From Escherichia coli (lineage in GTDB: Bacteria; Pseudomonadota; Gammaproteobacteria; Enterobacterales; Enterobacteriaceae), in the NCBI RefSeq assembly GCF_009931435.1, contig NZ_CP043414.1: 64,000 nucleotides of DNA. The stretch is one strand, 5' to 3'. A program made the position numbers and the translations under genes. The notes beneath the pieces are model-generated. The model saw only the letters and a list, made by a program, of their open reading frames with translations. It searched no databases and was not told the origin of the DNA. Position 1 is the first letter of the stretch, and each line of letters begins with the position of its first letter. This document shows, piece by piece, positions 61,353-61,928 of the stretch.

Positions 61353-61928
61353 ATGGAATACTTTGATATGCGTAAAATGTCGGTGAATCTGTGGCGAAAT
61401 GCTGCCGGTGAAACGCGCGAAATTTGCACTTTCCCACCGGCAAAACGTGATTTTTACTGGCGTGCCAGCATTGCATCCATCGCGGCGAATGGGGAGTTTT
61501 CTTTGTTTCCAGGTATGGAAAGGATAGTGACGTTGCTGGAAGGCGGCGAGATGTTCCTTGAAAGCGCAGACCGCTTTAACCATACCTTAAAACCGTTACA
61601 GCCTTTTGCCTTTGCGGCGGACCAGGTGGTTAAAGCGAAACTGACGGCAGGGCAGATGTCGCTGGATTTCAACATCATGACACGCCTGGATGTCTGTAAG
61701 GCGAAAGTCAGAATTGCCGAACGTACGTTTACTACCTTTGGCTCACGCGGCGGGGTAGTGTTTGTCATTAACGGGGCGTGGCAATTGGGCGATAAACTGC
61801 TCACTACCGACCAGGGCGCGTGCTGATTCGATGGCAGGCACACCCTGCGGCTTTTACAACCGCAAGGTAAACTGTTGTTCAGTGAAATCAACTGGCTCGC
61901 TGGTCATTCGCCGGATCAAGTTCAGTAA
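61353..61928 (+). pseudogene. ves: ves (HutD-family) reading frame interrupted by in-frame TGA at 61824..61826; predicted truncated product 157 aa instead of 191 aa
   Basis: ORF track ends at GAC-stop; the same frame continues open for 34 more codons ([33 protein letters not shown]) to TAA at 61926..61928. From memory K-12 has TGG (Trp) at this codon. Confidence 0.5.

Follow-up and report, generated by a model that had tools for sequence, protein, structure and literature searches.

The gene ves of Escherichia coli, which carries the RefSeq product name 'environmental stress-induced protein Ves' and is reportedly induced by low temperature, is interrupted by an in-frame TGA in the genome considered here. 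The question raised by this locus is whether the codon is a genuine nonsense mutation, an error in the record, the end of a functional shorter protein, or a stop that the ribosome reads through. We examined it within a window of 64,000 nucleotides, which is the whole stretch of E. coli DNA that was analyzed. The reading that we favor, at a probability of roughly four in five, is that the TGA, designated W158*, is a genuine, very recent and strain-private point mutation that makes ves a pseudogene.

The architecture of the locus (Table 1) largely agrees with a preliminary description made from the letters of the sequence. That the ves frame meets a TGA after 157 sense codons is seen directly in the sequence, and the ATG at 61353, this TGA and the TAA at its far end share one reading frame. 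The description counted 34 more open codons; this number stands for the residues lost (Trp158 plus 33) but not for the sense codons that strictly follow the TGA, which are 33. Its statement that the total of 191 codons equals the length of K-12 Ves was borne out (K-12 CDS, 576 nt and 191 aa), and the convergent overlap between the ves TAA and cho, which it described as shared with K-12, measures 41 nt (61888-61928) in the window, in K-12 and in strain AR_0077 alike. The ves of the window and that of K-12, also named ydjR, are collinear without gaps and share 97.7% DNA identity, and the start and stop sites agree with RefSeq annotations. The synteny is likewise that of K-12 (astE-spy-ves, convergent with cho-nadE), and ves thus sits at its usual, conserved place, downstream of spy and convergent with cho. 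Unlike the window, with TGA and 157 aa, K-12 has TGG at codon 158 and a protein of 191 aa.

Table 1. Features of the ves-cho region, in window coordinates.
Feature	Position	Strand	Remarks
Full ves locus	61353..61928	+	Ancestral 191-codon frame plus TAA; interrupted at codon 158
ves ORF, cut short	61353..61826	+	157 codons plus early TGA; basis, translation
Early opal stop, TGA in place of TGG (Trp158)	61824..61826	+	Causal base G>A at 61826
ves remnant, untranslated	61827..61928	+	33 sense codons (residues 159-191) plus old TAA at 61926-61928
cho (excinuclease Cho), intact	61888..62775	-	295-aa ORF, convergent with ves

The difference resides in a single base. In the alignment, the window has A and K-12 has G at the third position of codon 158, as the description had also stated; G is likewise found in strain AR_0077, in five strains with an equal Ves protein allele (L003-L007) and in the near-identical relatives L010 and L011. 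When Trp is put back at this codon, the product exactly matches a known 191-aa Ves encoded on 534 contigs. The lesion is therefore of the kind that defines a nonsense pseudogene: a lone G>A, no gaps, and a downstream frame open to the ancestral TAA. A statistical test is inapplicable here, since the TGA is seen directly against thousands of orthologues that are intact. The description had further named, as something that would overturn it, reference Ves proteins ending at ...TTDQGAC; there are none, and in K-12 and in all 26 orthologues compared the sequence continues through Trp158 and onward.

The allele is extremely rare. The gene is present in 5,425 of 5,426 complete RefSeq E. coli genomes, among which a 30-mer with TGA had no megablast match, against 5,371 matches for the TGG 30-mer that served as a positive control. 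The 30-mers were centered on the variant base, such that each 28-base megablast seed had to include it; identity bands of 61-mers were dropped because a TGA carrier with one SNP in the flank would be indistinguishable from a TGG genome. A 35-mer with TGA had no match in GTDB species representatives or in metagenome contigs, and a control 35-mer with TRR at the codon matched 76 metagenome contigs, every one of them with TGG. At the protein level, Ves products of 157, 178, 152 or 149 aa were absent from ~15 billion catalogued proteins. Database entries for Ves of 155-178 aa were considered as possible C-terminal truncations and rejected, because they are internal deletions or fragments instead. 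No second sequence with W158* was found in any collection searched, and the allele consequently has no independent corroboration.

The history of the change can be read from close relatives. Over 40000-64000 (24 kb), the best identity of the window to any of the 5,426 complete RefSeq E. coli genomes was 98.3%, most of them lying at 90-95%, and a small lineage that is 99.94-99.99% identical to the window was recognized in GCA_902709095.2, GCA_036246705.1 and the Logan assemblies ERR7450874 and SRR16011193. The exact NadE, AstD, AstB, YnjC and TopB proteins of the window occur in this small lineage, on about 15-17 contigs. The E. coli lineage from which the window derives has rarely been sequenced. 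YeaG was also tried as a probe for close relatives and abandoned as too conserved; it matched unrelated lineages that are ~97% identical to the window. Over 6,997 bp, L011 differs from the window at two positions (59929 and 61826) and L010 at four (the same two and two more); both are 99.94-99.97% identical to the window and have TGG with a called 191-aa Ves. A further 22 kb compared with relatives contained no difference private to the window, and in ~29 kb only two window-private substitutions were found with respect to the close lineage, one in astE (59929) and one in ves. With TGG and a Ves of 191 aa in the nearest relatives, the TGA is derived and private to the window. The strain-specific nonsense allele that the preliminary description offered as one of two options is thus what these comparisons favor, the TGA being private in all collections searched.

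The other option, and the alternative that survives best, is that an error in base calling, in the consensus or in the record put the A at 61826, in which case the strain would really possess TGG and encode an unbroken Ves of 191 aa. We consider this improbable, although several observations are what an error would produce: no collection searched contains W158* a second time, TGG is the codon of the closest relatives, the protein becomes an exact known one once G is restored, and the residue is invariant in orthologues, such that selection would disfavor a real change at this site. However, the change is a substitution and not an indel of the type common among long-read errors, and the assembly looks clean across ~62 other genes of the window; 59 of 60 K-12 orthologues, together with yoaA, tsaB and a SIMPL-domain ORF, had no stop and no frameshift. 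The intact state of every other gene tested means that neither genome decay nor an indel-ridden assembly is at work; decay of the Shigella type, which was considered as well, is ruled out on the same ground. The neighboring private change also argues against an error. The A>T at 59929 alters astE codon 188 (AstE Q188L), and the exact Q188L protein is found in GenBank/RefSeq entries (QHP99457.1, NAQ65510.1 and WP_161399921.1; 2 contigs), which means that the strain does have real private changes, although this SNP was in no complete RefSeq E. coli genome of the collection. The relatives themselves have roughly 1-3 private changes each per 22 kb, and two private substitutions in ~29 kb are therefore as real divergence predicts. 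The substitution error rate of a finished genome is expected to be well below ~1 per 10-15 kb, and real private changes in this lineage occur at ~1 per 10-15 kb, far above that rate. From this context, an error is the less likely option, and we infer that the A at 61826 is real with a probability of about 0.8.

A real stop at codon 158 would probably cost the protein its function. The Pfam domain HutD (PF05962) spans residues 8-175 of Trp-restored Ves (E = 7e-44), and the encoded product has an incomplete domain that lacks residues 158-175. The NCBIfam Ves equivalog NF008488 gives 347 bits for the truncated product and 426 bits for the Trp-restored one (cutoff, 292); because the locus encodes only profile positions 1-157 of 191 and thus falls short of the full profile, it is ves, but a truncated or pseudogene allele of it. 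Trp158 is invariant in all 26 enterobacterial orthologues (64-86% identity), in which G161, H163-L168, G172, L175, S177-I179 and W181 are also invariant or nearly so, and the remnant behind the TGA still encodes the conserved motif xDGxHTLRLL..GxLLFSEIxW. Among 89 diverse HutD-family proteins with a mean identity of ~30%, the residue is Trp in 70, followed by Val, Leu and Ile; positions 158-180 are free of gaps across these proteins, and positions 181-191 are variable or absent.

An AF2 model of restored Ves, built from an alignment of the 89 diverse sequences, reached a pLDDT of 94.1 and a pTM of 0.90; an earlier run with the 26 close orthologues (pLDDT 48) was discarded. The model places β-strands at 154-158, 164-167 and 173-181, and the strands lost were modelled at pLDDT 96-97. 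A stop at 158 would therefore cost the fold two core strands in full and a third strand its final residue. The model, which is of the restored and not the truncated sequence, can be overlaid on the crystal structure of HutD (5fcc) with a TM of 0.83-0.85 and an rmsd of 2.2 Å over 186 columns. Considering both the conservation and the model, truncated Ves most likely misfolds or is inactive. The HutD proteins of Pseudomonas, represented by P. fluorescens SBW25 (PDB 5fcc and 5v00) and PA5104 (1yll), share the PF05962 bicupin fold with Ves; they differ in sharing only ~24% identity with it and in retaining the C-terminal part of the fold that is absent from the product of the window. In Pseudomonas, hutD and hutC of the histidine-utilization locus are transcribed together, and deleting hutD increases hut expression (PMC8034625). 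Unlike Pseudomonas hutD with its hutC, ves stands alone between spy and cho.

In the sequence of events that we propose, a G:C to A:T transition at 61826 would have converted the Trp158 codon into an opal stop, translation would end after 157 residues, within the HutD bicupin domain, and the product, deprived of Trp158 and of the last two conserved β-strands, would be misfolded or inactive, making ves a fresh pseudogene within an otherwise intact chromosome region. Because ves is monocistronic and convergent with cho, no polarity on downstream genes would be expected. The TGA lies 62 nt outside cho, and the mutation leaves this gene unchanged; aligned with its K-12 counterpart, cho is free of gaps and internal stops, and the exact protein is encoded on 66 contigs. 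A scan for promoters and terminators in the region returned nothing relevant. Misreading of UGA by tRNA-Trp is an established low-level event in E. coli, and W158* may be slightly leaky, as such misreading would rebuild wild-type Ves.

Other disrupted alleles of ves exist in public data. A W181* allele (TGG>TGA) is present in GCA_032685585.1 and in the Logan assembly SRR32288667 (L021 and L023; 180-aa cluster P0136), and in both assemblies it is the lone base difference from K-12 ves; a W143* allele (TGG>TGA) is present on an ENA metagenome scaffold (L025; P0216). Both alleles were confirmed at the DNA level. Like W158*, they convert the TGG of a conserved Trp in the C-terminal half of ves to TGA and leave the rest of the frame intact; unlike W158*, which drops two core strands too, W181* drops only the variable tail and W181 itself. 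On the W143* scaffold, cho is split into ORFs of 81 and 193 aa (L025 2036-2923), which points either to decay of both genes at this locus or to an assembly prone to errors. Frameshifted forms of Ves are also on record (P0141, P0178, P0210 and P0220, 217 aa; P0188, 172 aa; P0217, 146 aa; P0247, 139 aa), and many of the variants, although shifted at differing points, are read onward in another frame, pass through the cho overlap and share one end at 217 aa. Several of these frameshift clusters comprise 30-110 sequences, for the most part from Logan assemblies, and real alleles and assembly errors may be mixed in them. Two records labelled 'plasmid' hold a ves match, and strain 19KM1778 has a ves without its first 174 nt that is annotated only as 'HutD family protein'.

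It might be supposed that W143*, W158*, W181* and the frameshifts together reflect repeated inactivation of ves under selection in some niches, or that opal codons at Trp positions act as leaky knock-downs. We regard this as very unlikely; mutational opportunity on a dispensable gene, TGG being one transition from a stop, explains the recurrence equally well. What the recurrence of disrupted alleles does suggest is that ves can be dispensed with under at least some conditions.

That the 157-aa protein is a functional shorter isoform, in which the C-terminal 34 residues are dispensable, appears highly implausible. The truncated product does remain above the Ves equivalog cutoff, family members vary in, or lack, the last ~10 residues (181-191), and the 180-aa W181* form is known from an NCBI isolate assembly and from run and metagenome assemblies, in a cluster of 116 members. 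However, the cut in the window is at 158 and not at 181. It takes away 18 residues of the Pfam domain, the invariant W158 with the nearly invariant G161, H163-L168, G172, L175 and S177-I179, and the two confidently modelled β-strands that superpose on the HutD crystal structure, and no orthologue ends near 157.

Recoding of the UGA, as selenocysteine or by programmed read-through with full-length Ves still the main product, is barely credible: the frame after the UGA is fully open and near-cognate reading by tRNA-Trp would give back the ancestral residue, but the aligned residue in homologues is Trp (70 of 89) and not Cys or Sec, the region has no Rfam match, the 62 nt after the UGA fold like shuffled sequences (z = -1.3; 17 of 200 shuffles at least as good), which together led us to reject selenocysteine and other recoding, and the base after the TGA is T, a UGA followed by U being an efficient terminator in E. 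coli. Moreover, the DNA from 61779 to the TAA is the same as in L003-L007, which have TGG, save for the variant base, and no recoding signal therefore arrived with the mutation.

Taken as the genuine mutation that we prefer, W158* represents no new kind of feature: it is an ordinary nonsense allele that appears to be private to this strain. Its significance lies mostly in annotation: ves should be flagged in this strain as a pseudogene with an internal stop, and neither the 157-aa nor a 178-aa ORF should be annotated as a protein. Studies of this orphan HutD homologue would also find in the strain a natural background that is null, or almost null, for ves.

Several further differences from K-12 were observed in the window. 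The genes ynjF, astD, ynjC and ydjY are only 90-93% identical to their K-12 counterparts. TopB (topB, 40537-42492) has 651 aa against 653 aa in K-12, owing to a 6-nt in-frame gap, and the exact protein is common to the small lineage. One member of that lineage, GCA_036246705.1 (L013), has in turn a 9-bp in-frame deletion in ynjE at the equivalent of window positions 46481-46489 (432 vs 435 aa). The eight-gene ydjE-ydjL cluster of K-12 is missing between yeaC and pncA (34009-34178), and ynjI is missing between topB and gdhA (42492-42576). Conversely, an extra ORF that is not in K-12 lies on the minus strand between ansA and sppA (35978-36790); the gene calls of the close relative L012 give it as a SIMPL-domain (PF04402) protein of 236 aa.
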